In this document: piece by piece, positions 15,747-38,160 of the stretch | How the letters are laid out: the number at the start of each line of letters is the position of its first letter | Position numbering within the stretch: the stretch's first letter is position 1 | Source: Deltaproteobacteria bacterium | GTDB taxonomy: Bacteria > Desulfobacterota > Binatia > DP-6 | DNA length: 56,873 nucleotides | Reading direction: 5' to 3' | Assembly: GCA_005879205.1 (NCBI GenBank) | Contig: VBLD01000118.1 | Location: 4,218-61,090, forward strand | The notes under the pieces: generated by a model | What the model was told of the DNA's origin: nothing | The model's database searches: none | The model's input: only the letters and a program-made list of their open reading frames with translations | Program-made: the position numbers and the translations under genes

Positions 15747-15970
15747 TGCGAGTGCCGCTAACGGATAACCGGAGTCGAGTCAACGAATTGAAGCTGCACG
15801 ACGATCGTGGCCCCCCGCTGCCTTGACAATCCGTGGAGCGCGCGGCTAAACGAAAGAGAGAACGATCCCTCGCACGACTGGCGTTCGCGTGGAATTGACC
15901 ACGGGGGAGTGCTGATCGACCAGCGGGCCGAACGCCTGGGCCCACGGGGAACGGCGGGGTCCACGCAGTC

Positions 15971-24523: not shown

Positions 24524-25273
24524 TCAGCCCCCGAGGCGCTCGAGGAGCCCCCGGGCGAGCGCGGGGCCGCGGCCGCTCTCCTCGTGCTTGAAGTAGGCGT
24601 AGATTCGCTTCCACCCGCGCGCCTCCCGCACGCGGGCCGCCCAGGCGTCGAGGTCGGCGTCCGCGTAGTCCGCGCGGCGCAGGCGCAGATAGCCGAAGGG
24701 CGCCGTCGCCACGAAGGGGGTGGTGAGCGCCTCGCCGTCCGCGATGCAGAGCGCGGCGTGGTGCCGGGAGAGGACCGCGTAGGTCTCGTCGCGGAACCAG
24801 CTCGCATCACGGAACTCGAATGCCGGGCTCACGCCGGGCGGCAGCTGCTCGAGAAAGACCGCGAGCCGCTCGACGTCGAAGCGGAGGTAGGGCGGGAGCT
24901 GGAAGAGCAGGGGCCCGAGCTTCTGGCCGAGCGTTGCGGCGAGCTGGCAGAAGCGCTGGACCGGCTCGCCCGCGTCGCGGAGCCGCAGCTGGTGGGTGAT
25001 GCGCTGCGGCGCCTTCAGCGCGAAGCGAAAACCCGCGGGCGTCTGCCGGCCCCAGCCGGTGAGGAGCTCCGGCTTCGGGAAGCGCTGGAAGGTGTAGTTG
25101 ATCTCCACCGTGCCGAGCTGCCGTGCGTAGAACCCGAGCATCTCGCGCGCGGAGAGCTCCTCGGGGTAGAAGGTGCCGCGCCACGCGGGGTAGCTGAAGC
25201 CCGAGGTGCCGACGAGCACGTGGGAGAGGCGCGTCGGCTCGGTGCGCCGTGCGCGCTGCGCGACAGGCGTCAT
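24524..25273 (-). CDS. DUF72 (YecE/UPF0759) family protein
   Basis: VGTSGFSYPAWRGTFYP, YARQLGTVEINYTFQR, FRFALKAPQRITH, LLFQLPP, EFRDASW, YLRL, YAYFKHE. Its ATG overlaps the stop of the MerR-TPR gene (ATGA). Confidence 0.8.
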   Translation of the reverse strand: MTPVAQRARRTEPTRLSHVLVGTSGFSYPAWRGTFYPEELSAREMLGFYARQLGTVEINYTFQRFPKPELLTGWGRQTPAGFRFALKAPQRITHQLRLRDAGEPVQRFCQLAATLGQKLGPLLFQLPPYLRFDVERLAVFLEQLPPGVSPAFEFRDASWFRDETYAVLSRHHAALCIADGEALTTPFVATAPFGYLRLRRADYADADLDAWAARVREARGWKRIYAYFKHEESGRGPALARGLLERLGG

Positions 25274-26124
25274 CGACGCGGGACGAGACGGCGGTAGATC
25301 GCCAGGTGCTTGACGGCGTCGCGCTGCCGCCCGGCGCGCTCGTAGAGCAATGCGAGGTTGTAGTGCGCGTCGGCGAGCCCCGGGTCGACACGGACGGCCC
25401 GCTCGTAGCAGCCGATCGCGTCGTCGCAACGTTCGGTGTCCTCGAGCAGCACCCCCAGGTTGTACCATGCGAGCCCGCTGGTGGGGTCGTACCGCACGGC
25501 GTCCCGGTAGTGGGCTTCCGCGCCCGTGACGTTCCCCTCGGCGTGCAGGAGGCGCCCGAGGTTGATGCGCGCCACGACGTGGGCGGGGTCCAGGTCGAGC
25601 GCGTGATGATAGGCGGCGCGGGCTTCGAGCGGCGACGAGGCCTCGATCTCCATCGCCAGGTCGCACCACTGCTCGGCGCTCAGCTGCGGCAGCGACGGCG
25701 CGGCCGTTGCGGGCAGATGGGCCAGCTTCGTCGCGCGCGCCACCACGCGACTGCTGTCGAAGTTGAAGAGGAACTGCCCCGACTCGGGCTGCCAGCGGGT
25801 GTCTCCGTCCCAGGCGACCACGCGCTTGCCGTCGGTGAAGATGCTGAGGCGGGTGAGCGGCCGGCCGCCGATCTGCCGGCGGAGGGATTCGAGGACGCGA
25901 CGGATCTGCCGTACGGGGACGCGCTCCTCGAGCAGACCGCGCGTGGTGCGCAGCAGGATCAGGTCGACGAAGTCGAAGTGCAGCCGCCCGCGGCCGTCGC
26001 GCGCGGGAGCGACCAGCCCGGCGTGCACGCAGCGCCGGAGCCGTGCGGGCGGCAGCCCGACGATGCGCGCCGCCTGCGCCGTGTCGAAGTGGGCGCGAGC
26101 GTCGCCGACGCGCCGCGCGCCCAC
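25270..26124 (-). CDS. MerR-type HTH protein fused to TPR repeats
   Basis: N-terminus FDTAQAARIVGLPPARLRRCVHAGLVAP...HFDFVDLILLRTTRGLLEERVPVRQIRRVLESL. C-terminus has 3-4 TPR units (AYHHALDLDP, HYRDAVRYDP, CYERAVRVDP). GTG start directly abuts the ku stop. Confidence 0.7.
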   Translation of the reverse strand: MGARRVGDARAHFDTAQAARIVGLPPARLRRCVHAGLVAPARDGRGRLHFDFVDLILLRTTRGLLEERVPVRQIRRVLESLRRQIGGRPLTRLSIFTDGKRVVAWDGDTRWQPESGQFLFNFDSSRVVARATKLAHLPATAAPSLPQLSAEQWCDLAMEIEASSPLEARAAYHHALDLDPAHVVARINLGRLLHAEGNVTGAEAHYRDAVRYDPTSGLAWYNLGVLLEDTERCDDAIGCYERAVRVDPGLADAHYNLALLYERAGRQRDAVKHLAIYRRLVPRR

Positions 26125-27015
26125 CTACTTCTTGTGCGCGCGCCTGGCTGGCGCGGGCGCCTCGCGCCGCTGTACGGCGGCGGCGGGTCGGCGCTTCGCG
26201 GCCCGCGCGGCTCCCGCCATCTCTCGCTCCTCGCCGCCCGCCTTCCGCCCGGCGAGGCTCTTCTTCAGCGCCTCCATGAGGTCGATCACCTCGGCGCGCT
26301 CGGGGGCCGGGGCCGCGATCGTCACCTCCTCGCCCGCCACCTTCTTCTCGACCACCTCCGTCAGCCGATCGCGGTACTCGTCGCGGTACCTGTCGGGACG
26401 GAATTCCGTCGACGAGAGTTGGTCGACGAGCCGCCGCGCAAGCTCGATCTCCGAATCGCGCAGCTGCACCACGCCGTCGGTGCGGATGTCCGCGAAGCTA
26501 CGCACCTCGTCGGCGTAGTACATCTCGTGCATGACGAGCCCGCCGTCGTAGGCACGGATCAGCACGAGGCGCTCCTTGCCGTGGCTCACGTGCTGCGCGA
26601 GCGCCACCTTGCTCTCGTCGCGCATCGCCTCGGCGAGCAGACGGTAAGCCTTCTCGCCGCCCTTGTCGGGTCCGAGGTAGTGCACGCCCTCGAAGTAGAT
26701 CGGGTCGACCCGCTCCAGGGGCACGAACTCGTGGATGTCGATGGTCGGGCTGGCCGCCGCCTCGATCGCCTTCAGCTCGGCGTCGGTGAAGGTCACGTAG
26801 CGATCGCGCGCGAACTGATAGCCCTTGACGAGCTCGTTGCGCTCCACGACCGTCTCGTCGTGGGGGCAGAAGACCTGCTGGCGGATGCGCGTACCGCACT
26901 TCTCGTGCAGGAGGTTGAAGGACACCTGCTGCGACTGGGTGGCGACGTAGACCCGTACGGGGATCGAGACGAGGCCGAAGCTGATCGTCCCCGACGCGAT
27001 CGAGCGTGCTGCCAT
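26125..27015 (-). CDS. ku: Non-homologous end-joining protein Ku
   Basis: MAARSIASGTISFGLVSIPVRVY, VKGYQF, YFEGVHYLGPDKGGEKAYRLL, and a basic C-terminal tail. GGAGG 5 nt upstream of ATG 27015. Confidence 0.9.
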   Translation of the reverse strand: MAARSIASGTISFGLVSIPVRVYVATQSQQVSFNLLHEKCGTRIRQQVFCPHDETVVERNELVKGYQFARDRYVTFTDAELKAIEAAASPTIDIHEFVPLERVDPIYFEGVHYLGPDKGGEKAYRLLAEAMRDESKVALAQHVSHGKERLVLIRAYDGGLVMHEMYYADEVRSFADIRTDGVVQLRDSEIELARRLVDQLSSTEFRPDRYRDEYRDRLTEVVEKKVAGEEVTIAAPAPERAEVIDLMEALKKSLAGRKAGGEEREMAGAARAAKRRPAAAVQRREAPAPARRAHKK

Positions 27016-27085
27016 GGAGGCCTCCTCTGGAAACAAGAAAGCGCACGGCCCGGGGTCGTGTCAAACCCGGGGCTCCGGCCGTCCG

Positions 27086-29113: not shown

Positions 29114-30436
29114 CTACCGCGAGCAGGTGCGGAATCCGGCGAAGACGTCGCGCCGGTCCGGGGTGTAGAAGTTCCGCCACGTGTTGCGCAGCAGGCGCCC
29201 CCGCGTCGCCCAGCAGCCGCCGCGCAGCACCTTGTGCGTGCCGAACCAGGGTGCGGAGTATTCCTCGTAGGGATCGAGGACGAAGCCGGGGTAGGGGAGG
29301 AAGTCGGTGGCGGTCCACTCCCAGACGTTCCCGAGCATCTGCCGGCAGCCGAACGCACTGTCGCCGGCCGGCAGCGCGGCGACGTCGACACAGCCGAGCG
29401 TGTGGGCGTCGAGATTCGCCCGCTCCGGCATCGGCTGCTGGTCGCCCCAGGGGTAGAGCCGCTTGTGAGCCGCGAGTGCCGTGCCGCCGGCGGTCGGCTC
29501 GCCGGCCGCGGCCGCCTCCCATTCCGCCTCCGTCGGGAGGCGCCGGCCGGCCCAGCGACAGTACGCGTCGGCCTCGTACCAGCCGACGAAGATGACGGGA
29601 TGATACGGCTCGAGCTCCAGCCAGCGGTCGAAGTGGCGGCGCTCCCAGCCGCCACCCACGGCGCGTCTCCAGTAGACGGGGTGTGCGGCCTCGACCGCCT
29701 CGCGCCACCTCCAGCCGGCCCCTGACCAGAGCTCGCGACGGCGGTAGCCGCCGTCCTCGACGAAGGTGGCGAATTCGGCATTGGTGACCGGCGCGCGTCC
29801 GATCGCGAACGGCACGATCTCGACCCGGTGCGCCCACTTCTCGTTGTCGAAGACGAAGGGCAGGTCGCGGCTCGCCCCGAGCGCGAAGGCGCCGCCGGGC
29901 ACGCGGGCGTCGCCCCGGAGCGCGCCGGCGGCGGCCGACGACACTGCGGCCGGGAGCGGCGGGGGTGGATAGGCCAGCGTCTGCCGGGTATAGGCGAACG
30001 CCTCGTCGTGCATGTCCTCGTGAAAGATCGTGAGGAGGTGGAAGTACCGTTCCGTGGGCGACGGCTCGCGCGCCGCGAGTCGCTCCCGGACGCGCGCCAG
30101 GACCGCCTCGAGGTAGCCCAGCGTCTCGGCCATGGACGGAAGCGGGAGGTCCCAGCGGGTGTCGTGCGCGACCCGGGCCGAGTCGTAGAGCCGGTCGCCG
30201 TCGGCCCGCAGCGACGCCTCGTCGCGCGCGTGTCGGAGCGCCCAGAACTCCTGGAACCAGCCGACGTGCCCGACCTCCCAGCGCAACGGGTTGACGATCG
30301 ACAGGCGTGGGCCCATGAGCTGCTCGGCGTCGAGACCGTCGACGAGCGCGATCGTGTGCGCGCGCGCGTCGCGGTGCCACGCGACGAGCCGCCCGCCGTG
30401 GCCGCCCTCCCCGTGCACCACGCCTCGGAGTAGCAT
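29114..30436 (-). CDS. senA: EgtB/SenA-family synthase (DinB-like + FGE-sulfatase domains)
   Basis: LRWEVGHVGWFQEFW and FHEDMHDEAF (DinB-type metal site). PVTNAEFATFV, VGWYEADAYCRWAGRRLPTEAEWE, GNVWEWT, LRGGCWAT (FGE-sulfatase fold). The symbol rests on pairing with the adjacent senB-like gene, not on sequence discrimination from egtB. Confidence 0.65.
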   Translation of the reverse strand: MLLRGVVHGEGGHGGRLVAWHRDARAHTIALVDGLDAEQLMGPRLSIVNPLRWEVGHVGWFQEFWALRHARDEASLRADGDRLYDSARVAHDTRWDLPLPSMAETLGYLEAVLARVRERLAAREPSPTERYFHLLTIFHEDMHDEAFAYTRQTLAYPPPPLPAAVSSAAAGALRGDARVPGGAFALGASRDLPFVFDNEKWAHRVEIVPFAIGRAPVTNAEFATFVEDGGYRRRELWSGAGWRWREAVEAAHPVYWRRAVGGGWERRHFDRWLELEPYHPVIFVGWYEADAYCRWAGRRLPTEAEWEAAAAGEPTAGGTALAAHKRLYPWGDQQPMPERANLDAHTLGCVDVAALPAGDSAFGCRQMLGNVWEWTATDFLPYPGFVLDPYEEYSAPWFGTHKVLRGGCWATRGRLLRNTWRNFYTPDRRDVFAGFRTCSR

Positions 30437-30464
30437 ACTGATACCGCTTCGCCAGAGGGGCGGA

Positions 30465-31454
30465 ATGCGGATTCTCATCCTGTGTCCCGCGCGTGCCGGC
30501 ACGCGGCACGGCAACCGCGTGACGGCGCTCCGCTGGGCGCGCATCCTGCGGGGCCTCGGACACCGGGTGGCGCTGCAGGAGGCGTTCCGGGACGACCGCC
30601 CCGATCTGCTGATCGCCCTGCACGCACGGAAGAATGCCGCCCCGGTACTTCGCTTCCGGGCGCGTGCCCCGGAGGCGCCGCTGGTCGTCGCCTTGACGGG
30701 TACCGACGTCTACCGTGACATCGGCCGGAGCCGCGCCGCGAGACGCGCGCTCCAGGCGGCGACACGACTCGTCACGCTTCAGCCGCTCGCGCTCCGCGAG
30801 CTCCCGCGCGCCCTCCGCGCGAAGGCGCGCGTGATCCATCAGTCGGCGCTCCCGGTGCGCCCCGGGCGACGTCCGGCGCGCTCCTTCGACGTCTGCGTCC
30901 CGGGTCACTTGCGAAGCGAGAAGGACCCCTTCCGAACGGCGCAGGCGGTCCGCGGTCTGCCGGCCGACTCCCGCATCCGCGTCCTCCAGGTGGGAAGCGC
31001 GATGACGCCGGCCATGCGCCGCCGAGCGTGCGACGAGATGACGCGGAACCCGCGTTACCGCTGGCTCGGCGACCGGCCGCATCGGGAGGCGCGCGCGATT
31101 CTCGCCCGCAGCCGCCTCATGGTCCTGTCGTCGCGGATCGAGGGCGGGGCCAACGTGATCTCGGAGGCGCTCGCCAGCGCGGTTCCCGTGCTGGCAAGCC
31201 GCATCCCGGGCTCCGTCGGCTTGCTCGGCCCGGACTACCCGGGCTACTTCCCGGTCGGCGCCACGCGCGTCCTTGCCCGCCTCCTCGGGCGCGCGGAACG
31301 GGACTCCGCGTTCTACGCGCGGCTCGCGCGGGCGTGCCGGCGTCGTGCGCCCCTGGTGGCGCCCCGGGCGGAGCGGCGCGCCTGGGCGAGGCTGCTCGTC
31401 GAGCTCGAACGCGTGCGTGACGCGCGGAACCCGGGTCAGCGGCTCTTTGCCTGA
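30465..31454 (+). CDS. senB: GT-B glycosyltransferase resembling selenosugar synthase SenB
   Basis: MRILILCPARAGTRHGNRVTALRWARILRGLGHRV N-terminus. C-terminal GT1-type block MVLSSRIEGGANVISEALASAVPVLASRIPG. Divergent from the EgtB-like gene, 28 nt apart. Confidence 0.55.
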   Translation: MRILILCPARAGTRHGNRVTALRWARILRGLGHRVALQEAFRDDRPDLLIALHARKNAAPVLRFRARAPEAPLVVALTGTDVYRDIGRSRAARRALQAATRLVTLQPLALRELPRALRAKARVIHQSALPVRPGRRPARSFDVCVPGHLRSEKDPFRTAQAVRGLPADSRIRVLQVGSAMTPAMRRRACDEMTRNPRYRWLGDRPHREARAILARSRLMVLSSRIEGGANVISEALASAVPVLASRIPGSVGLLGPDYPGYFPVGATRVLARLLGRAERDSAFYARLARACRRRAPLVAPRAERRAWARLLVELERVRDARNPGQRLFA

Positions 31455-32635
31455 CGGATGTAGCGCTGCAGATCCTCGCGGTCGATGAGCGAGAGGATCT
31501 CGACCCGCCCGCCGTCGAGCGGGCGGTAGATCAGGCGCACGTCGGTGGCCACCCGGATGCGGTAGTGGTCGGGGAGCCCTTCGAGCGGGATGGCGCGCAG
31601 GCTCGGGTGCCGCCAGTCCTCCGCCAGGCGGTAGATCTTCTCGAAGGCGTTGCGCACGATCTTGCGGTCCCAGCGACGGATGGACTCGTAGAATTCGTCC
31701 GTGAAGAGGGGGAGGCTCCATCCCGCCCCGCTCGACGCCGGACGTTCCTCTGCGCTCTCCGCGGGGCGCGCCGTACGCTCCGCCTCGGCCGCGCGCAGGC
31801 GGGCGGCCAGCATGGCTTCCGCCTCGCGCGCCTCCTCGAGCTCGGCGTCGAGGGCGCGGGCCCGCCGCTTCGTCGCCTCGAGCTCCTCGCCGAGGCGCGT
31901 GACCTCCCCGGCGGTGCCGGACTGAAGACGTGCCCGCAAGCCCTCGCGCTCCTCGCGGAGACGGTCGCCCTCGGTCTCGAGCCGCGTGCGTTCCTCTTCC
32001 GACTGCCTGAGATCGCGACGCGCGCTGGCCACGCTGCGCTCGAGCTCGACCAGCCGCTCCTTGAGCCCGCCGAGGCGCTTCAGCGTACGGTCGCGGGCGC
32101 GTTGCGCGCGGGCGGCCTGCTTGGCCGCATCGCTCGCGAGCTTCGTCTCGGGAGGAGGGGAGTCGGCGGGCGGCTCCGCCGGCTGACCCTCCTCCGGCTC
32201 ACGCGCGTGCGCATCCGCCTCGTCGAACTCGGCGATGATCGTCTTGACGAGCGCCGACGCCAGCTCCCCCGCGCCCTCGACGGCCGAGCCGAGCAGCGCC
32301 CAGGCGAGGTCGCGGGCCGGGTCGCGGGACTCGAGCACGAGATCGGCCACCGCCCGGCCGCCGCCCTCGCTCGCCACGGCGGCGGCGAGCGGCGACGCAC
32401 CGATGTCCTTCCGGAGCGTGCGGTCCACCGCTGCCGCGACCTCGGGATCGTTCTCGTAGTAGTCGACGAGGCTCCAGGCGAGGTCCCAGGTGCCGAGACG
32501 ATCGACACGCGTGCCCGGCGGCGCGGTGCCGAGTCGGCCGACGAGCTTCGCGAGACTCTTCTCGGAGAGCGTGACCACGAGGAACGTGCTGCGCTCGTCG
32601 GGCGTCAGCGGCGAGAGGAGAGCCACGCGCGCCAT
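31436..32635 (-). CDS. Hypothetical fusion protein: unknown N-domain + long coiled coil + C-terminal RelE/ParE-fold domain
   Basis: 399 aa. Residues ~190-290 are heptad-like and E/R/L/A-rich. The last ~90 aa (FTDEFYESIRRWDRKIVRNAFEKIYRLAEDWRHPSLRAIPLEGLPDHYRIRVATDVRLIYRPLDGGRVEILSLIDREDLQRYI) follow the RelE/ParE toxin pattern. Confidence 0.6.
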   Translation of the reverse strand: MARVALLSPLTPDERSTFLVVTLSEKSLAKLVGRLGTAPPGTRVDRLGTWDLAWSLVDYYENDPEVAAAVDRTLRKDIGASPLAAAVASEGGGRAVADLVLESRDPARDLAWALLGSAVEGAGELASALVKTIIAEFDEADAHAREPEEGQPAEPPADSPPPETKLASDAAKQAARAQRARDRTLKRLGGLKERLVELERSVASARRDLRQSEEERTRLETEGDRLREEREGLRARLQSGTAGEVTRLGEELEATKRRARALDAELEEAREAEAMLAARLRAAEAERTARPAESAEERPASSGAGWSLPLFTDEFYESIRRWDRKIVRNAFEKIYRLAEDWRHPSLRAIPLEGLPDHYRIRVATDVRLIYRPLDGGRVEILSLIDREDLQRYIRQAKSR

Positions 32636-32736
32636 TCTACCCGAGTAGCGTCGCGTGGCGACCGGAACGGGCGGTCAAAAACCGCCCGGCAGTTTGCCGG
32701 CTCCGATCGCGCGCGATACATTCGGCCGGGCCTCCG

Positions 32737-34737
32737 ATGGAGACCTACACGCTCCGTCCGCGGCCGGACGCTCGCCCCGAGCCGCGCTATCGCATCGACT
32801 ACGAGGGCGAGCTGAACCCGGCGCAGTACGCGGCGGCGACGACGCTCGAGGGTCCGGTGCTGGTCGTCGCCGGCGCCGGCAGCGGCAAGACGCGCACGCT
32901 CGTCTACCGGGTCGCCCGGCTCGTCGAATCGGGGGTGAACCCGGCTCAGATACTGCTCCTCACCTTCACCCGCAAGGCGGCGGAAGAGATGCTCCGGCGC
33001 GCGTCGATGCTGGTCGGCGGCAGCTGCGAGCAGGTGGCGGGCGGGACCTTCCACTCGTTCGCCAACACGGTGCTGCGGCGCGCGGCGCGGCGGCTCGGAC
33101 TGAAGCCCGGCTTCACCATCCTCGACCGCAGCGATTCCGAGGACGTGGTGAACCTGCTGCGCAGCCGGGCGGGTCTCGACCGGAAAGACCGGCGCTTCCC
33201 TCGCAAGGGCGCCATCGTCGAGATCTTCAGCATGGCCGTGAACCGGAGCACCACCGTCCCGGCGCTCCTCGAGGACGGCTATTCCCACCTCTACGAGCAC
33301 CTCGACGACCTCGTGCGCCTGGAGGAGGGGTACCGGCGCTACAAGCGCGAGCAGGACCTCGTCGACTACGACGACCTCCTCGTGCTGCTACGCGACCTCC
33401 TGCGCGATCACCCCGAGGCGGCCGCGCACCTCTCGCGCTCCCATCGCTACGTCATGGTCGACGAGTACCAGGACACCAACCGCCTCCAGGCCGAGATCGT
33501 CCGCGGCCTGGCCGTGGCGCACCGGAACGTCATGGCGGTCGGTGACGACAGCCAGAGCATCTACTCGTTCCGCGGCGCCACCTTCCGCAACATCATGGAG
33601 TTCCCGGACCTCTTCCCCGGCACGCGGATCATCAAGCTCGAGGAGAACTATCGGTCCACCCAGCCGATCCTCGACCTCGCCAACGCCGTCATCGAGCGCG
33701 CCGCCGACAAGCACACCAAGATCCTGCACGCACATCGGGGTCCAGGCGGTCCGCCGTCACTGGTCCAGTGCTCCGACGAGCAGGCGCAATCGCGCTTCGT
33801 CTGCCAGCGCATCCTCGAGCTGCGCGAGGAAGGCGTTTCGCTCGACGAGATCGCGGTCCTGTTCCGGTCGAGCTTCCACTCCTTCGACCTCGAGCTCGAG
33901 CTCCAGCGTGCGGACCTGCCGTTCGTCAAGCGCGGCGGCTTCAAGTTCATCGAGACGGCGCACGTGAAGGACGCGCTGGCCCATCTGCGGATCGTCGCCA
34001 ACCCGCGCGACGCCGTCTCCTGGCACCGCGTGCTCCTGCTGCTCGACGGGGTCGGCCCGAAGACCGCGGACGACATCTTCGCGCACGTCGTCGATGCGCC
34101 GACGATCGAGGCGGTGAGCGAGCGCCTGGCGGCCTATCCACGCCGCGGCGCCTACGCCAAGGACCTCGGACGGCTGGCGGCGCTGCTCGCCGAGATCGCC
34201 CCGGACGAGATGCTGCCGGGCGAGAAGGTGGCGCGCGTCGTCGGCTTCTACACGCCGATGCTCCGGCAGATCCATCGCGATGACTTCCCGAAGCGGGAGA
34301 AGGACCTCGAGCACTTCATCACCATTGCGGGCCGCTACCGGAGCCTCGCCTCGCTGCTCGCCGACATGGCGCTCGAGCCGCCGACCGACAGTGTGGGCGA
34401 CGTGCTCGCCGCCCGCGTGGAGGAAGGCCTCCTGACGCTGTCGACGATCCACTCGGCCAAGGGTCTCGAGTGGCACACCGTGTTCGTCATCTGGCTGGTC
34501 GACGGCCGCTTCCCCTCCTACCTGAACCTGCACGATGGTGACGAGGTGGAGGAGGAGCGCCGGCTGCTCTACGTCGCTGTGACGCGGGCCAAAGACAACC
34601 TCTACCTCTCGTACCCGATCGACATCTACGACCGGGCGGCGGGCATGGTCCTCGGCCAGCCGTCGCGCTTCGTGCAGGATCTCCCGGAGGCGATTCTGCC
34701 GGGGATGCAGGTCATCGAGTCCGGAGGCTTCCGCTAG
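32737..34737 (+). CDS. uvrD: UvrD/PcrA/Rep-family ATP-dependent DNA helicase
   Basis: LNPAQYAAA, VVAGAGSGKTRTLVYRV (Walker A), LLLTFTRKAA, VMVDEYQDTN, VGDDSQSIYSFRGA, TIHSAKGLEW, RLLYVAVTRAK. Confidence 0.9.
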   Translation: METYTLRPRPDARPEPRYRIDYEGELNPAQYAAATTLEGPVLVVAGAGSGKTRTLVYRVARLVESGVNPAQILLLTFTRKAAEEMLRRASMLVGGSCEQVAGGTFHSFANTVLRRAARRLGLKPGFTILDRSDSEDVVNLLRSRAGLDRKDRRFPRKGAIVEIFSMAVNRSTTVPALLEDGYSHLYEHLDDLVRLEEGYRRYKREQDLVDYDDLLVLLRDLLRDHPEAAAHLSRSHRYVMVDEYQDTNRLQAEIVRGLAVAHRNVMAVGDDSQSIYSFRGATFRNIMEFPDLFPGTRIIKLEENYRSTQPILDLANAVIERAADKHTKILHAHRGPGGPPSLVQCSDEQAQSRFVCQRILELREEGVSLDEIAVLFRSSFHSFDLELELQRADLPFVKRGGFKFIETAHVKDALAHLRIVANPRDAVSWHRVLLLLDGVGPKTADDIFAHVVDAPTIEAVSERLAAYPRRGAYAKDLGRLAALLAEIAPDEMLPGEKVARVVGFYTPMLRQIHRDDFPKREKDLEHFITIAGRYRSLASLLADMALEPPTDSVGDVLAARVEEGLLTLSTIHSAKGLEWHTVFVIWLVDGRFPSYLNLHDGDEVEEERRLLYVAVTRAKDNLYLSYPIDIYDRAAGMVLGQPSRFVQDLPEAILPGMQVIESGGFR

Positions 34738-34928: not shown

Positions 34929-36346
34929 GCGCCGCGCTCACCGACCTCGGCGTGGCGGAGCTCCGCCGGTTGCTCCGCGCGCGCGAAACCACGGCCGCGG
35001 CCGTCGCGGAGGCGCACCTCGCGCGTCTCGAGGCGCTCGACGGCGACGCGCACGCGTTCGTCGCGGTCATCCGCGACGAGGCGCTCGTGGCCGCGGCGGC
35101 CGCAGACCGCGCCCTCGGCCGTGGGACGGCGGGGCCCCTCGCGGGCGTTCCCGTCGCGGTGAAAGATCTGTTCGCCGTGCGCGGTCTGGTGCGCGGGAAC
35201 GGCAGCCCGGCCTTCGCAGGCGATCCGCCCGCCACCGCCGATGCGACCGTCGTCGCGAGGCTGAGAGAGGCCGGGGCGGTCGTGCTCGGCACCACCCACA
35301 TGCACGAGCTGGCCTTCGGTCCGACCGGGGTGAACGCGGCGCTCGGGACGCCGCGCAACCCGTGGGCGGCGGACCGCGTTCCCGGCGGATCGAGCAGCGG
35401 CTCCGGCGCGGCCGTCGCCGCCCGCCTCGTGCCCGCCACGCTCGGGACCGACACGGGCGGGTCGGTGCGCATCCCGGCGAGCTTCTGTGGCGTGACCGGC
35501 CTCAAGCCGACCTACGGCCGGGTGAGCCGCGCCGGGGTCACGCCGCTCGCTCCGACGCTCGACCACGTGGGACCGCTCGCCCGCAGCGTGGAAGACGTGG
35601 CGCTGGTGCTCCAGGCGATCGCCGGCCACGATCCGGCCGACGGCTCGAGCGCGCGCCTGCCGGTCCCCGATTATGCCGCGCGTCTCGATCGTCCGCTTCG
35701 CGGCCTGCGCCTCGGCATCCCGCGTGCCTTCGCCTTCGAGCTGATCGAGCCCGAGGTCGCCGCCGTGTTCGAGACGGCGCTCGTCGATCTCCGCGAGGCG
35801 GGTGCCGCCACCACCGACGTCGTGTTGCCGTCCCTGGCGCACGCGAACGCGGCGCTCGGGGCGACCATCCTGGCGGAGGCGGAGCGGGCGCTCGGATCGT
35901 TGCTGGGGTCGCGTCGGGCGCACACGGGCCTCGAGCTCCGCGTCTACCTGGCGCTCGGGAAGATGGTCGAGCAGGACCACTACCTCGCCGCGCAGCGCCT
36001 GCGGACCCGTCTCTACGAGGAAGCGCGCGCCGCCTTCGCACGCGTCGACCTGCTCGTGCTGCCGACCACCCCCGTCGTCGCGCCGCGCCCGGACGAGCTC
36101 CTCGTGCGGCTCGGCCGCCAGGAGCTCGACACCGCGCAGGCGATCACGCGTCTCACCGCGCCATTCAACCTGGTCGGGCTTCCGGCGCTCGCGCTCCCCT
36201 GCGGGCTCACGTCAGCGCGCATGCCCGTCAGCCTCCAGGTGGTGGGGCCGCCGTTCGCCGAGGACCGGGTACTCGCGGCGGGGCACGCCTACCAGCGCGC
36301 GACGCGCTGGCACGAGCGCCGTGCGCCGTTCCCGGAACCCGGCTAA
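34925..36346 (+). CDS. Amidase-signature (AS) family amidase
   Basis: GVPVAVKDLF (catalytic Lys), NPWAADRVPGGSSSGSGAAVA, GTDTGGSVRIPASFCGVTGLKPTYG. Confidence 0.85.
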   Translation: MSAALTDLGVAELRRLLRARETTAAAVAEAHLARLEALDGDAHAFVAVIRDEALVAAAAADRALGRGTAGPLAGVPVAVKDLFAVRGLVRGNGSPAFAGDPPATADATVVARLREAGAVVLGTTHMHELAFGPTGVNAALGTPRNPWAADRVPGGSSSGSGAAVAARLVPATLGTDTGGSVRIPASFCGVTGLKPTYGRVSRAGVTPLAPTLDHVGPLARSVEDVALVLQAIAGHDPADGSSARLPVPDYAARLDRPLRGLRLGIPRAFAFELIEPEVAAVFETALVDLREAGAATTDVVLPSLAHANAALGATILAEAERALGSLLGSRRAHTGLELRVYLALGKMVEQDHYLAAQRLRTRLYEEARAAFARVDLLVLPTTPVVAPRPDELLVRLGRQELDTAQAITRLTAPFNLVGLPALALPCGLTSARMPVSLQVVGPPFAEDRVLAAGHAYQRATRWHERRAPFPEPG

Positions 36347-37557
36347 GGCTGCCGGCAGCGCATCGCGCCGGAGGAATCCCGGCAGGCGCCGATCGTCCCC
36401 TCGCGGTCGATGATCCCGTGCGTCGTGAACGTCAGGCTGACGGGAGGATGAAGGACGGCCGGATCGGCCAGCAGCGGGAAGCGCATGCTGAACTTGATCA
36501 CGTCGGGGTTTGACGACGCCGCGCTGAACTTCACCTCGAATGGCTCAGTGTCCTTCCGGCACGCGATGGCGCGACCGAGCGTGCGGCATTCCGTGTCTTC
36601 CCACTTGGCCGTGTGATCGAGCGCCAGGTCGTCCGTCACCCGAGCGGTGATCCCCCCTCGCGAGTCGAACGACTGCATCGGCGATGCCGGCTCGATCCGG
36701 AATTTCCCCTTCGCGCTGATGCTGCCGTATTTCCCCGCGCGACGACTGCCGCGGATGGACAGCGACGTGATGATCAGCTTCGCGTCGTTGCCGTCGCACG
36801 CGTCCCCGATGCCGTCCCGATCCAGATCGCCCTGGTCGGTGTTCGCGTAGTCGGGGCAGTTGTCGTCCGCGTCGCAGACGTGATCGCCGTCTCGGTCGCC
36901 GCCGCCGCCTTCGACGCACGTCCCTCCCTGGCAGGTGTCCGGAACCGAGCACGCCACATGGCTCCCCGTGTTACACGGGCTGCCGTCCGGCTTGGGCGGC
37001 GTCACGCAGACGCCGGTGGCCGGGTTGCACGTGCCCCCCATCGCGCACTGATCGACGGCATCGCACACCACCGGGTCCTTCGACGGGTTGGAGCAGATTC
37101 CCGTCGCCGGATCACAGGTGCCCGCGAGGTGGCAGGCGTCGATCGGAACGCACACCACGGGGTTCGAGCCGGTGCAGGCGCCGGCCTGGCAGGTGTCCGT
37201 CTGCGTGCAGCCGTTGCCGTCGTCGCACGCGGTGCCGTCGGGCAAGGCCACGTTCGAGCAACGACCCGTGTTCGCGTCGCACACCCCCGCGTGGCACTGG
37301 TCTTCCGCCGCGCACACGATCGGCTGACCGCCGATGCAGCGGCCGCCCGCGCACGTGTCGCTCTGGGTGCACGCGTTGCCGTCGTCGCATCGCGTTCCAT
37401 CGATCGCCGGGACGTGGCGGCAGGTCCGGGAGGACTGGTCGCAGCTATCGATCGTGCACGGATTGCCGTCGCCGCAGTCCGTATGCTTGTTGCAGCCGAG
37501 AGCCGGCGAGGCGCTCAGCAAGAGGAGCGAGAACGCAAAGGCCAAGAGCTCGTACAT
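36343..37557 (-). CDS. Secreted/lipoprotein with myxobacterial-type Cys-rich repeats and thrombospondin type-3-like Ca-binding repeats
   Basis: Signal peptide ending ALGC. About 8 tandem units of the form DGTxCDDGNxCTxxDxCxxGxCxG. Then GGGDRDGDHVCDADDNCPDYANTDQGDLDRDGIGDACD. GGAGGA SD before ATG 37557. Confidence 0.75.
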   Translation of the reverse strand: MYELLAFAFSLLLLSASPALGCNKHTDCGDGNPCTIDSCDQSSRTCRHVPAIDGTRCDDGNACTQSDTCAGGRCIGGQPIVCAAEDQCHAGVCDANTGRCSNVALPDGTACDDGNGCTQTDTCQAGACTGSNPVVCVPIDACHLAGTCDPATGICSNPSKDPVVCDAVDQCAMGGTCNPATGVCVTPPKPDGSPCNTGSHVACSVPDTCQGGTCVEGGGGDRDGDHVCDADDNCPDYANTDQGDLDRDGIGDACDGNDAKLIITSLSIRGSRRAGKYGSISAKGKFRIEPASPMQSFDSRGGITARVTDDLALDHTAKWEDTECRTLGRAIACRKDTEPFEVKFSAASSNPDVIKFSMRFPLLADPAVLHPPVSLTFTTHGIIDREGTIGACRDSSGAMRCRQP

Positions 37558-37788
37558 GGCGATTCCTCCAGAACCCCCTCGATCGTCCAGGCGCATGAGC
37601 AACCGGAGTGCCGGCCTCGTGGCATCGTGCGCGGGCAGGAAGCACGGCCCCCTTTCCCGGCGGGACGACCGGCGATGGCACGCCGACCTTGGCACCCTGT
37701 GCCAGGGACGGCCCATGCGCGGACTCGGATGACGCCGCCGTCGGCGGCAGGGATGCCGTCGCCCGGCGCTCGTGGTAGGGCTCGACCG

Positions 37789-38160
37789 ATGGAGCACTCG
37801 CCGGGTTTTCTCAGGCTCGTCGCCGACGCCAAGACGCGCATCCGTGAGACGACGCCCGAGGAGGTCCACCGCCGGCAGCAGGCGGGCGAGCGATTCCACC
37901 TGGTCGACGTGCGCGAGGATCGGGAGTGGGCGCAGGGCCACGCTCGCGGCGCGCTCCACCTCTCGAAGGGTGTCATCGAGCGCGACATCGAGAAGGCGAT
38001 CCCGGATCGGGACGCCGAGATCATCCTCTACTGCGGCGGCGGCTTTCGCTCGGCGCTCGCGGCCGACGCGCTCCAGACCATGGGGTACCGGCGCACGCTC
38101 TCGATGGACGGTGGCTGGCGGCGCTGGACGGAGCTCCGCTACCCCGTCGACCGGGACTGA
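37789..38160 (+). CDS. Rhodanese-domain protein
   Basis: HLVDVREDREWAQGHARGALHL and the active-site loop ILYCGGGFRSA. 123 aa. Confidence 0.8.
   Translation: MEHSPGFLRLVADAKTRIRETTPEEVHRRQQAGERFHLVDVREDREWAQGHARGALHLSKGVIERDIEKAIPDRDAEIILYCGGGFRSALAADALQTMGYRRTLSMDGGWRRWTELRYPVDRD

Follow-up and report, generated by a model that had tools for sequence, protein, structure and literature searches.

A RelE-type toxin fold without an antitoxin at the C-terminal end of a coiled-coil protein family of Binatia and Myxococcota

Does a toxin-type domain found at the C-terminal end of a long chromosomal protein belong to a toxin-antitoxin (TA) module, a defence protein or a regular gene? The question is raised by an open reading frame (ORF) of 399 amino acids (aa) in a 56,873 nucleotide (nt) stretch of DNA, termed the window, from Deltaproteobacteria bacterium of the Binatia (assembly GCA_005879205.1, contig VBLD01000118.1, positions 4,218–61,090). 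An earlier reading of the letters alone, termed the sequence-only reading, had placed the ORF at window positions 31436–32635 and had described it as a RelE/ParE-like domain joined to a coiled coil and an N-terminal region of no recognised motif. The ORF exists with the sequence as quoted, and its coordinates were rechecked. The explanation favoured here, which is considered probable, is that a RelE-like nuclease forms the C-terminal domain and that the protein represents a conserved chromosomal family in which an undescribed scaffold tethers a RelE-type ribonuclease (RNase) by a flexible linker.

The three-part architecture of N-terminal region, linker with coiled coil, and RelE/ParE-like C-terminal end is supported by an AlphaFold2 (AF2) model and by domain searches. 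The full-length model was built on a 67-sequence alignment covering two phyla and has a mean predicted local distance difference test score (pLDDT) of 88 and a predicted template modelling score (pTM) of 0.40. The domains are thus modelled with confidence individually while their mutual arrangement is not. The features are as follows.

31436..32635, (-) strand: whole ORF, 399 aa plus stop codon
32201..32635, (-) strand: N-terminal all-helical domain (N-domain), residues 1–145, eight helices over residues 12–145
32150..32200, (-) strand: Pro/acid-rich disordered linker, residues 146–162, pLDDT below 50 over residues 150–159
31772..32149, (-) strand: coiled coil, helices 163–239 and 242–288 with a turn at G240-T241, AF2 pLDDT 88–94
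31715..31771, (-) strand: second flexible, disordered linker, residues 289–307, pLDDT below 50 over residues 291–303
31439..31714, (-) strand: RelE-type BECR-fold domain (C-domain), residues 308–399 (92 aa)

The RelE/ParE fold of the C-domain is recovered by Foldseek, by sequence and profile searches of the PDB, by Pfam and by PHROG, where the match is to a "RelE-like toxin" (E = 4.7e-5). The order of elements in the AF2 model is beta1 308–311, alpha1 313–319, alpha2 324–339, beta2 358–363, beta3 366–373, beta4 377–385 and alpha3 386–398, i.e. the RelE topology. The top Foldseek matches of the full model in the PDB are YafQ, Thermus thermophilus RelE, Mycobacterium tuberculosis RelE1 and RelE2, Methanocaldococcus jannaschii RelE and YoeB, with a target-normalised TM score of 0.72–0.78 and a root mean square deviation of 2.0–2.8 Å over 82–88 columns. 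By sequence, the best PDB match of residues 301–399 is E. coli RelE (E = 3e-4, HMMER), and the same protein is the best match of a 28-sequence family profile (E = 1.6e-4).

The HMMER alignment places K52, K54, R61, R81 and Y87 of RelE opposite R359, R361, R367, R386 and Y392 of the window protein, respectively. Each of these five residues is at least 98% conserved among 69 sequences from Binatia and Myxococcota. The codons of the predicted active site, all on the (-) strand, are at the following positions.

31559..31561, (-) strand: R359
31553..31555, (-) strand: R361
31535..31537, (-) strand: R367
31478..31480, (-) strand: R386
31460..31462, (-) strand: Y392

In RelE, mutation of R61, R81 or Y87 impairs cleavage and the R81A/Y87F double mutant is almost dead, while K52 and K54 are reported as less important (PMC2807027).

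The C-domain could in principle be ParE-like, in which case the protein would be a gyrase poison or a DNA-directed factor linked to DNA repair (uvrD, recBCD, lexA, mutS). The best Pfam family is indeed named ParE_toxin (PF05016), which matches 20 of 28 family members with a best E-value of 1.1e-5, followed by ParE_like (17/28) and YoeB_toxin (16/28), and repair genes lie close by in three lineages. However PF05016 includes E. coli RelE itself (PMC11980606), and its name therefore does not separate RelE from ParE. Sequence and profile searches of the PDB return no ParE chain even at E ≤ 10, and the ParE structures (ParE2, ParE1) appear in the Foldseek list below the mRNases, from rank 16 down. 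The repair adjacencies are not common to the lineages, and uvrD is kept in one of 80 loci. Because the RNase active-site residues are present and invariant, because only RelE is found by sequence and because ParE ranks lower, the C-domain is RelE-like rather than ParE-like, and a gyrase-directed or repair-linked function is very improbable. The fold proposed by the sequence-only reading is thereby retained and narrowed to its RelE side.

The C-domain sequences of Binatia and Myxococcota are 59%–67% identical, compared with 20%–26% for the N-domains. An inter-phylum identity of 59%–67% is unusually high for a RelE-fold domain. Alternatively, the C-domain might be a catalytically silent RelE fold that serves as a ribosome- or RNA-binding module, in a protein that would then be structural or regulatory and no nuclease. 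The near-invariance spans the whole surface of the domain and not the active site alone, which would fit a binding interface; at the position of RelE R45 there is a Glu; and a harmless domain needs no antitoxin. Set against this, all five active-site equivalents are kept at the level given above, and the alternative effector found on the same scaffold, NYN, is another nuclease fold. A silent fold is accordingly regarded as improbable, and a RelE-like nuclease is the preferred reading of the C-domain.

The N-domain was modelled alone by AF2 with a pLDDT of 95 and a pTM of 0.79 and shows eight helices. Its hallmark motifs are GRLGTAPxGTR (with G41 and R43) and LAWALL (with W112 and L115). The N-domain belongs to no family in Pfam, NCBIfam or PHROG, and residues 1–300 contain no Pfam or NCBIfam domain beyond coiled-coil noise. 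Foldseek gives no significant match of the N-domain in the PDB (best E = 3.3) or among the BFVD viral models (best E = 1.4). The CARD/PYD matches of Foldseek have a probability below 0.2. The N-domain profile has weak PDB matches to designed ARM repeats through a HEAT/ARM-like motif of about 30 aa.

A HMMER search with the N-domain profile through all of 1.84 billion representative sequences gives 87 proteins at E ≤ 0.001. All strong full-length matches also bear the RelE domain. Five weaker representative clusters display the N-domain and coiled coil followed by a C-terminal NYN domain (PF01936, E = 1e-20 to 1e-28), and one of the NYN groups is from Armatimonadota. One further representative cluster has the N-domain and coiled coil with DUF2103. 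The N-domains of these clusters show the hallmark motifs LG..PGxR and W.LL.D. An hhalign comparison of the N-domain with that of the NYN variant gives 96.9% (E = 1.5e-10, 129 columns), and the N-domains of the RelE and NYN variants are homologous as judged by these profiles. Three apparent further architectures, P0266 (GGDEF with the N-domain), P0278 and P0269, were set aside, as they appear to stem from merging of gene calls or from frameshifts and not to be real.

The N-domain and coiled coil thus make up a scaffold on which the C-terminal effector can be exchanged, and at least two of the effectors have RNase folds. Because NYN or DUF2103 ride on the same scaffold in other lineages, the scaffold would be a delivery or regulatory module. 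The contexts of the Armatimonadota NYN group are not defence islands. In L091 (4258–7572) an RNase J gene precedes the NYN variant P0335 on the same strand with a gap of 39 nt, and the pair may form an RNA-decay operon.

The coiled coil is the part of the scaffold that links the two folded domains. It gives only coiled-coil-type noise in domain and profile searches, and a full-length profile was swamped in the PDB by tropomyosin- and SMC-type coiled-coil matches and was replaced by domain-only profiles. The break between the two helices sits on a motif that is conserved in Binatia, LQSGTAGEV, and Foldseek finds a weak likeness of the stretch to the Vipp1/PspA helical hairpin. As both helices are of high confidence, the turn is conserved and this weak resemblance is present, the model suggests that the two long helices pack as an antiparallel hairpin. 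The distance from N-domain to C-domain has a median of 182 aa in the Binatia type and 183 aa in the Myxococcota type (SD, standard deviation, 7; n = 319 proteins). The coiled-coil sequence diverges freely while the length of the spacer is conserved.

How widely is this protein distributed? A search of 5.8 billion proteins with the window protein gave 643 matches. Nearly all of the best 120 are full length (about 390–440 aa, with two shorter fragments) at 59%–90% identity, and the named proteins among them are from "Candidatus Binatia". When a Myxococcaceae member was used as the seed of another protein search, 772 matches were obtained, again nearly all of full length. A scan of GTDB with one genome per species found 92 positive species; the Binatia-type loci are 53%–79% identical, and full-length loci at 33%–37% are numerous in Myxococcota (Anaeromyxobacteraceae, Myxococcaceae, "Myxococcales"). 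The family proteins are of about 400–450 aa, with a range of 394–473 aa. The cultured carriers, which are among the 772 matches, are Anaeromyxobacter sp. Fw109-5 (ABS26305.1), A. dehalogenans 2CP-C (ABC81476.1) and 2CP-1, Anaeromyxobacter sp. K and A. oryzae; the gene is thus present in each of the five genomes of cultured Anaeromyxobacter that the matches include. Contig DATMAZ010000191.1 (L018), labelled Candidatus Limnocylindria and assigned to Chloroflexota, carries at its very end a C-terminal fragment of the family gene with 87% identity and is probably a mis-binned Binatia contig.

The genes around the window ORF are ordinary, i.e. Ku, a MerR-TPR protein, hemerythrin, DUF1499, an EgtB-like protein, GT4, UvrD and an amidase. 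The GC content at the gene (0.73–0.74) equals that of the flanks; no compositional anomaly was found at the gene and no tRNA in the window. In the closest relative, L001 (79% identity), the divergence of the gene is similar to that of the adjoining genes. Neighbours that are ordinary and either stable or lineage-specific, a matching GC content and absence of tRNA argue for vertical inheritance and against a mobile TA or defence cassette. The protein is a member of a large, vertically inherited family in two phyla and is no isolated oddity.

A toxin of this fold is normally accompanied by an antitoxin, and the sequence-only reading had noted that an antitoxin-sized neighbour is missing here. 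This is borne out by the layout of the locus. Upstream of the ORF is a divergent UvrD/PcrA-type helicase gene (666 aa, 32737–34737; PF00580, E = 7e-71), and downstream is a convergent GT4 glycosyltransferase ORF (30291–31454, (+) strand) that shares 19 nt with the 3′ end of the ORF. The only intergenic interval on the upstream side is the following.

32636..32736, no strand assigned: divergent spacer to uvrD, 101 nt, with a palindrome and a hairpin; context only, not conserved with the family

The 101-nt spacer and the 19-nt convergent overlap therefore leave no room on either side for an antitoxin gene. Neither in the window nor in six annotated homologous contexts, whose neighbours differ and are unrelated, is there an adjacent co-oriented small antitoxin gene. 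Fusion of the window protein to an antitoxin or DNA-binding domain (RHH, HTH, YefM/Phd, ParD, HigA, YiaG) was looked for by Pfam, NCBIfam, PDB profile and Foldseek searches, and none was found.

The sequence-only reading had paired the gene with uvrD across this spacer. The divergent arrangement is as described, but it is not conserved, and a functional pairing is not supported. The UvrD, GT4, FGE and amidase proteins of the window were compared by tblastn with 80 related loci, with flanks of up to 8 kb, some of them ended by the contig. L001 alone keeps UvrD, GT4, the FGE/DinB protein and the amidase; in the other 79 loci no UvrD homologue was found within these flanks, some shortened by contig ends. 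A functional link to uvrD was therefore rejected, as one locus of the 80 retains this neighbour, and the uvrD adjacency is incidental. The perfect palindrome ATCGCGCGCGAT that had been reported in the spacer exists, at 32706–32717 and not at 32705–32716. Already in L001 the right arm is lost and the palindrome is not kept as such. The window contains a single copy, and at least one match is obtained in 4 of 100 shuffles. A role for it as an operator or other regulatory element was discarded on these grounds. The same spacer also contains a GC-rich hairpin, CGGGCGGT-N5-ACCGCCCG, at 32668–32688, which is deleted in L001.

The neighbours in related genomes are lineage-specific, as seen by all-against-all clustering of the flanking six-frame ORFs, in which spurious high-GC frames contaminate the top clusters. 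Elsewhere in Binatia the neighbour upstream encodes a 4HBT thioesterase, a GGDEF protein or an ABC1 kinase, and the one downstream encodes DUF1302, a TPR protein or recD. Linkage to RecBCD was rejected as a family feature, being confined to one Binatia subclade (L005–L009). In Anaeromyxobacteraceae there is a stable block of Lon, Metallophos, sometimes a 300-aa secreted protein, the family gene, convergent LexA, UbiB and MutS, and this Lon-to-MutS block is found in about 20–25 loci, two complete genomes included. Metallophos and the 300-aa protein (hyp300) show one weak PDC-S10 match and otherwise no match to defence models; as general operon partners they were rejected, since they are absent from Binatia and from the window and are lineage-specific. 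A gene for an ABC1/UbiB-type kinase is found at a distance of no more than a few kb in Binatia (L005, L009) and in about 20 Anaeromyxobacteraceae loci (e.g. L086, 11607–13280), in differing orientations. Its proximity could be chance or an old synteny remnant.

The same contexts bear on a defence function. The protein might be a single-chain TA or an abortive-infection sensor-effector, in which the scaffold would be both a cis antitoxin and a phage sensor that frees the RelE RNase upon infection, as in fused TA defence proteins and Cami1. A toxin-type effector without a separate antitoxin, the presence of RelE, NYN or DUF2103 on the same scaffold (a modularity typical of defence), the position of Cami1 as a structural neighbour and the ties drawn between multidomain BECR toxins and defence by Gerdes 2025 all favour this explanation. 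Yet no defence genes or cas genes occur in the contexts examined, which are of a housekeeping kind and not defence islands. PADLOC-DB v2 gives no match outside the coiled coil, where segments of JetC and LmuB match as coiled-coil noise only (E ≥ 2e-4). The synteny in Anaeromyxobacteraceae is stable and the gene is in each of the five cultured genomes mentioned. The whole protein is strongly conserved (59%–90% within Binatia), putative sensor domain included, there is no anomaly of composition, and the N-domain has no viral structural counterpart. An abortive-infection role is for these reasons considered unlikely, though less so than either a silent or a ParE-like domain.

The conserved active site together with the absence of an antitoxin implies a regulated, physiological mRNA cleavage of the A-site type, with control residing within the same polypeptide. 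If the RelE-like nuclease reading is correct, the C-domain would cut mRNA in the manner of RelE in the ribosomal A site, probably in a ribosome-dependent fashion. R367 would stabilise the transition state, R386 would be the general acid, Y392 would stack on or activate the nucleotide, and R359 and R361 would stand in for K52 and K54 of RelE. As an antitoxin is absent, toxicity would be limited in cis by the N-domain and coiled coil. The scaffold might hold the RNase inactive until a signal relieves autoinhibition, or it might confine the RNase to a given target or to ribosomes in a given state. The coiled coil, with its conserved length, may act as a tether or a ruler.

Confidence in any specific physiological role is much less than in the nuclease reading. 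One such role, put forward as a tentative and rather doubtful proposal, is that the N-domain and coiled coil are a sensor or ruler for the state of the ribosome (stalled, collided, or with a vacant A site) or for another conserved cellular machine, and that they bring to it an RNase that can be exchanged, of the RelE type in Binatia and Myxococcota and NYN elsewhere. The protein would then be a lineage-wide, antitoxin-free housekeeping endonuclease of translation quality control, i.e. a domesticated RelE and a counterpart of SmrB and Rae1.

Several points weigh against the nuclease reading and the role built on it. Activity is, for every family member, predicted only, from sequence and model. 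The window protein alone falls under the Pfam gathering threshold for ParE_toxin (16.2 vs 23 bits). RelE R45 aligns with E352 in the motif LEGLP (Q in some Myxococcota), so that a basic equivalent is absent, and R45 is mutated along with R81 in the inactive R45A/R81A RelE. The equivalents of K52 and K54 are Arg, not Lys. The low pTM (0.40) reflects that there is no confident inter-domain arrangement, so that cis autoinhibition and the hairpin are putative. Effector swapping is typical of defence systems too, and the NYN domains on the scaffold are of the LabA-like PF01936 type and not of the YacP subfamily of Rae1. Lastly, DNA-repair genes are nearby in three lineages, i.e. UvrD here, RecBCD in one Binatia subclade and LexA/MutS in Anaeromyxobacteraceae. 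No repair-gene adjacency is common to different lineages, but a role in translation leaves the recurring proximity of repair genes unexplained.

Nearly all known RNases of the RelE family are small, rapidly evolving, mobile toxins restrained by antitoxins, or are defence effectors. In the present family the RelE domain is one of the best conserved segments of a multidomain protein that is inherited vertically in two phyla, with its active site kept and no antitoxin. A RelE-type toxin fold thus seems to have become an ordinary gene of the chromosome and not part of a mobile TA module. Because the N-domain is modelled with confidence, is without relatives in the PDB or among viral models and also carries NYN, an undescribed scaffold for RNase delivery is defined. 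Some family members are labelled "type II toxin-antitoxin system RelE/ParE family toxin" at NCBI and others "hypothetical protein"; the former annotation is misleading for the family. The cultured Anaeromyxobacter carriers make the predictions testable.

The length of the window protein may need a small correction. An alternative start codon, GTG at 32624–32626, equals V4 of the window protein and would give a chain of 396 aa. In L001 (7990–8003) the ATG lies outside the reading frame and the GTG equivalent to V4 is the start that is conserved, and for this reason the GTG start may apply to the window protein.

Other features of the window are noted here as observations. A protein with FGE-sulfatase and DinB_2 domains (EgtB-like) is encoded at 29114–30544 on the (-) strand. 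A Ku homologue at 26125–27036 (PF02735, E = 7e-50) directly adjoins a MerR-HTH and TPR protein at 25270–26124, both on the (-) strand; with Ku and UvrD (32737–34737) the region carries several DNA-repair genes. A 538-aa ORF at 36343–37959 on the (-) strand has many Cys-rich repeats of the CDDGNxCT type and a weak match to the Dicty_CTDC repeat (E = 4e-5), below the gathering score. The sole Rfam match in the window is a ZMP/ZTP riboswitch aptamer (RF01750) at 15864–15948 on the (+) strand, with 53.8 bits against a gathering score of 39.

How does the protein compare with known systems? The sequence-only reading could assign the architecture to no described system, and this holds: no description was found in the literature, either by architecture terms or by accession numbers, and the N-domain and the exchange of RelE and NYN effectors are likewise not described in the literature searched. 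Mentions of "RelE" in Aravind-lab papers proved to be the word "release". The RelE fold and multidomain RelE proteins are thus already known, and what was not found described is this architecture, its N-domain and the RelE/NYN exchange.

E. coli RelE, YafQ and YoeB (BECR fold, PF05016 and its clan) resemble the C-domain in topology, in size, as best sequence and structure matches and in the equivalents of R61, R81 and Y87. Unlike the window protein, RelE stands alone as a toxin of about 95 aa next to its antitoxin RelB and belongs to a mobile and highly divergent family, whereas the window domain is the C-terminal end of a 399-aa chain, has no antitoxin, is vertically inherited and has the high identity across two phyla given above. 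The canonical type II TA systems (relBE, parDE, yefM-yoeB) consist of a monodomain toxin of 85–100 aa and a small antitoxin, and the window protein has neither property.

The multidomain and fused toxins surveyed by Gerdes 2025 (fused TA mono-genes, RelE-YiaG, ToxM, PtuXYZ; PMC11980606) are similar in that a BECR domain lies inside a larger protein. They differ in having a recognisable antitoxin (RHH, HTH, YefM, ParD), or transmembrane or PtuA-type partners (PMC11980606). According to its main text, the survey excluded multidomain proteins without an identifiable antitoxin; coiled coils and Myxococcota are unmentioned in that text, and the architecture of N-domain, coiled coil and RelE is absent from it (PMC11980606).

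Cami1 (CARF-RelE, an ancillary effector of type III CRISPR; PDB 8phb, 8phj) is also an antitoxin-less protein in which a RelE-fold RNase is joined in cis to an N-terminal regulatory module. It is a Foldseek neighbour of the model, at ranks 9, 19 and 32, and was solved on the 70S ribosome (8phj). Cami1 has a CARF sensor for cyclic tetra-adenylate (cA4) and sits in CRISPR loci, unlike the window family, which shows no CARF match and no CRISPR context and whose N-domain matches no known fold.

Rae1/YacP (NYN fold), SmrB and Cue2 are chromosomal, antitoxin-less endonucleases whose cleavage of mRNA depends on translation, as proposed for the window protein, and Rae1/YacP cleaves mRNA at stalled ribosomes (PMC12407103). 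They have no sequence kinship to the RelE domain, and the putative analogy is functional only; the NYN of the scaffold is PF01936, not YacP. RelE is itself coupled to the ribosome, and antitoxin-less RNases coupled to the ribosome have precedents for both effector folds of the scaffold, i.e. Cami1 for RelE and Rae1/YacP for NYN.

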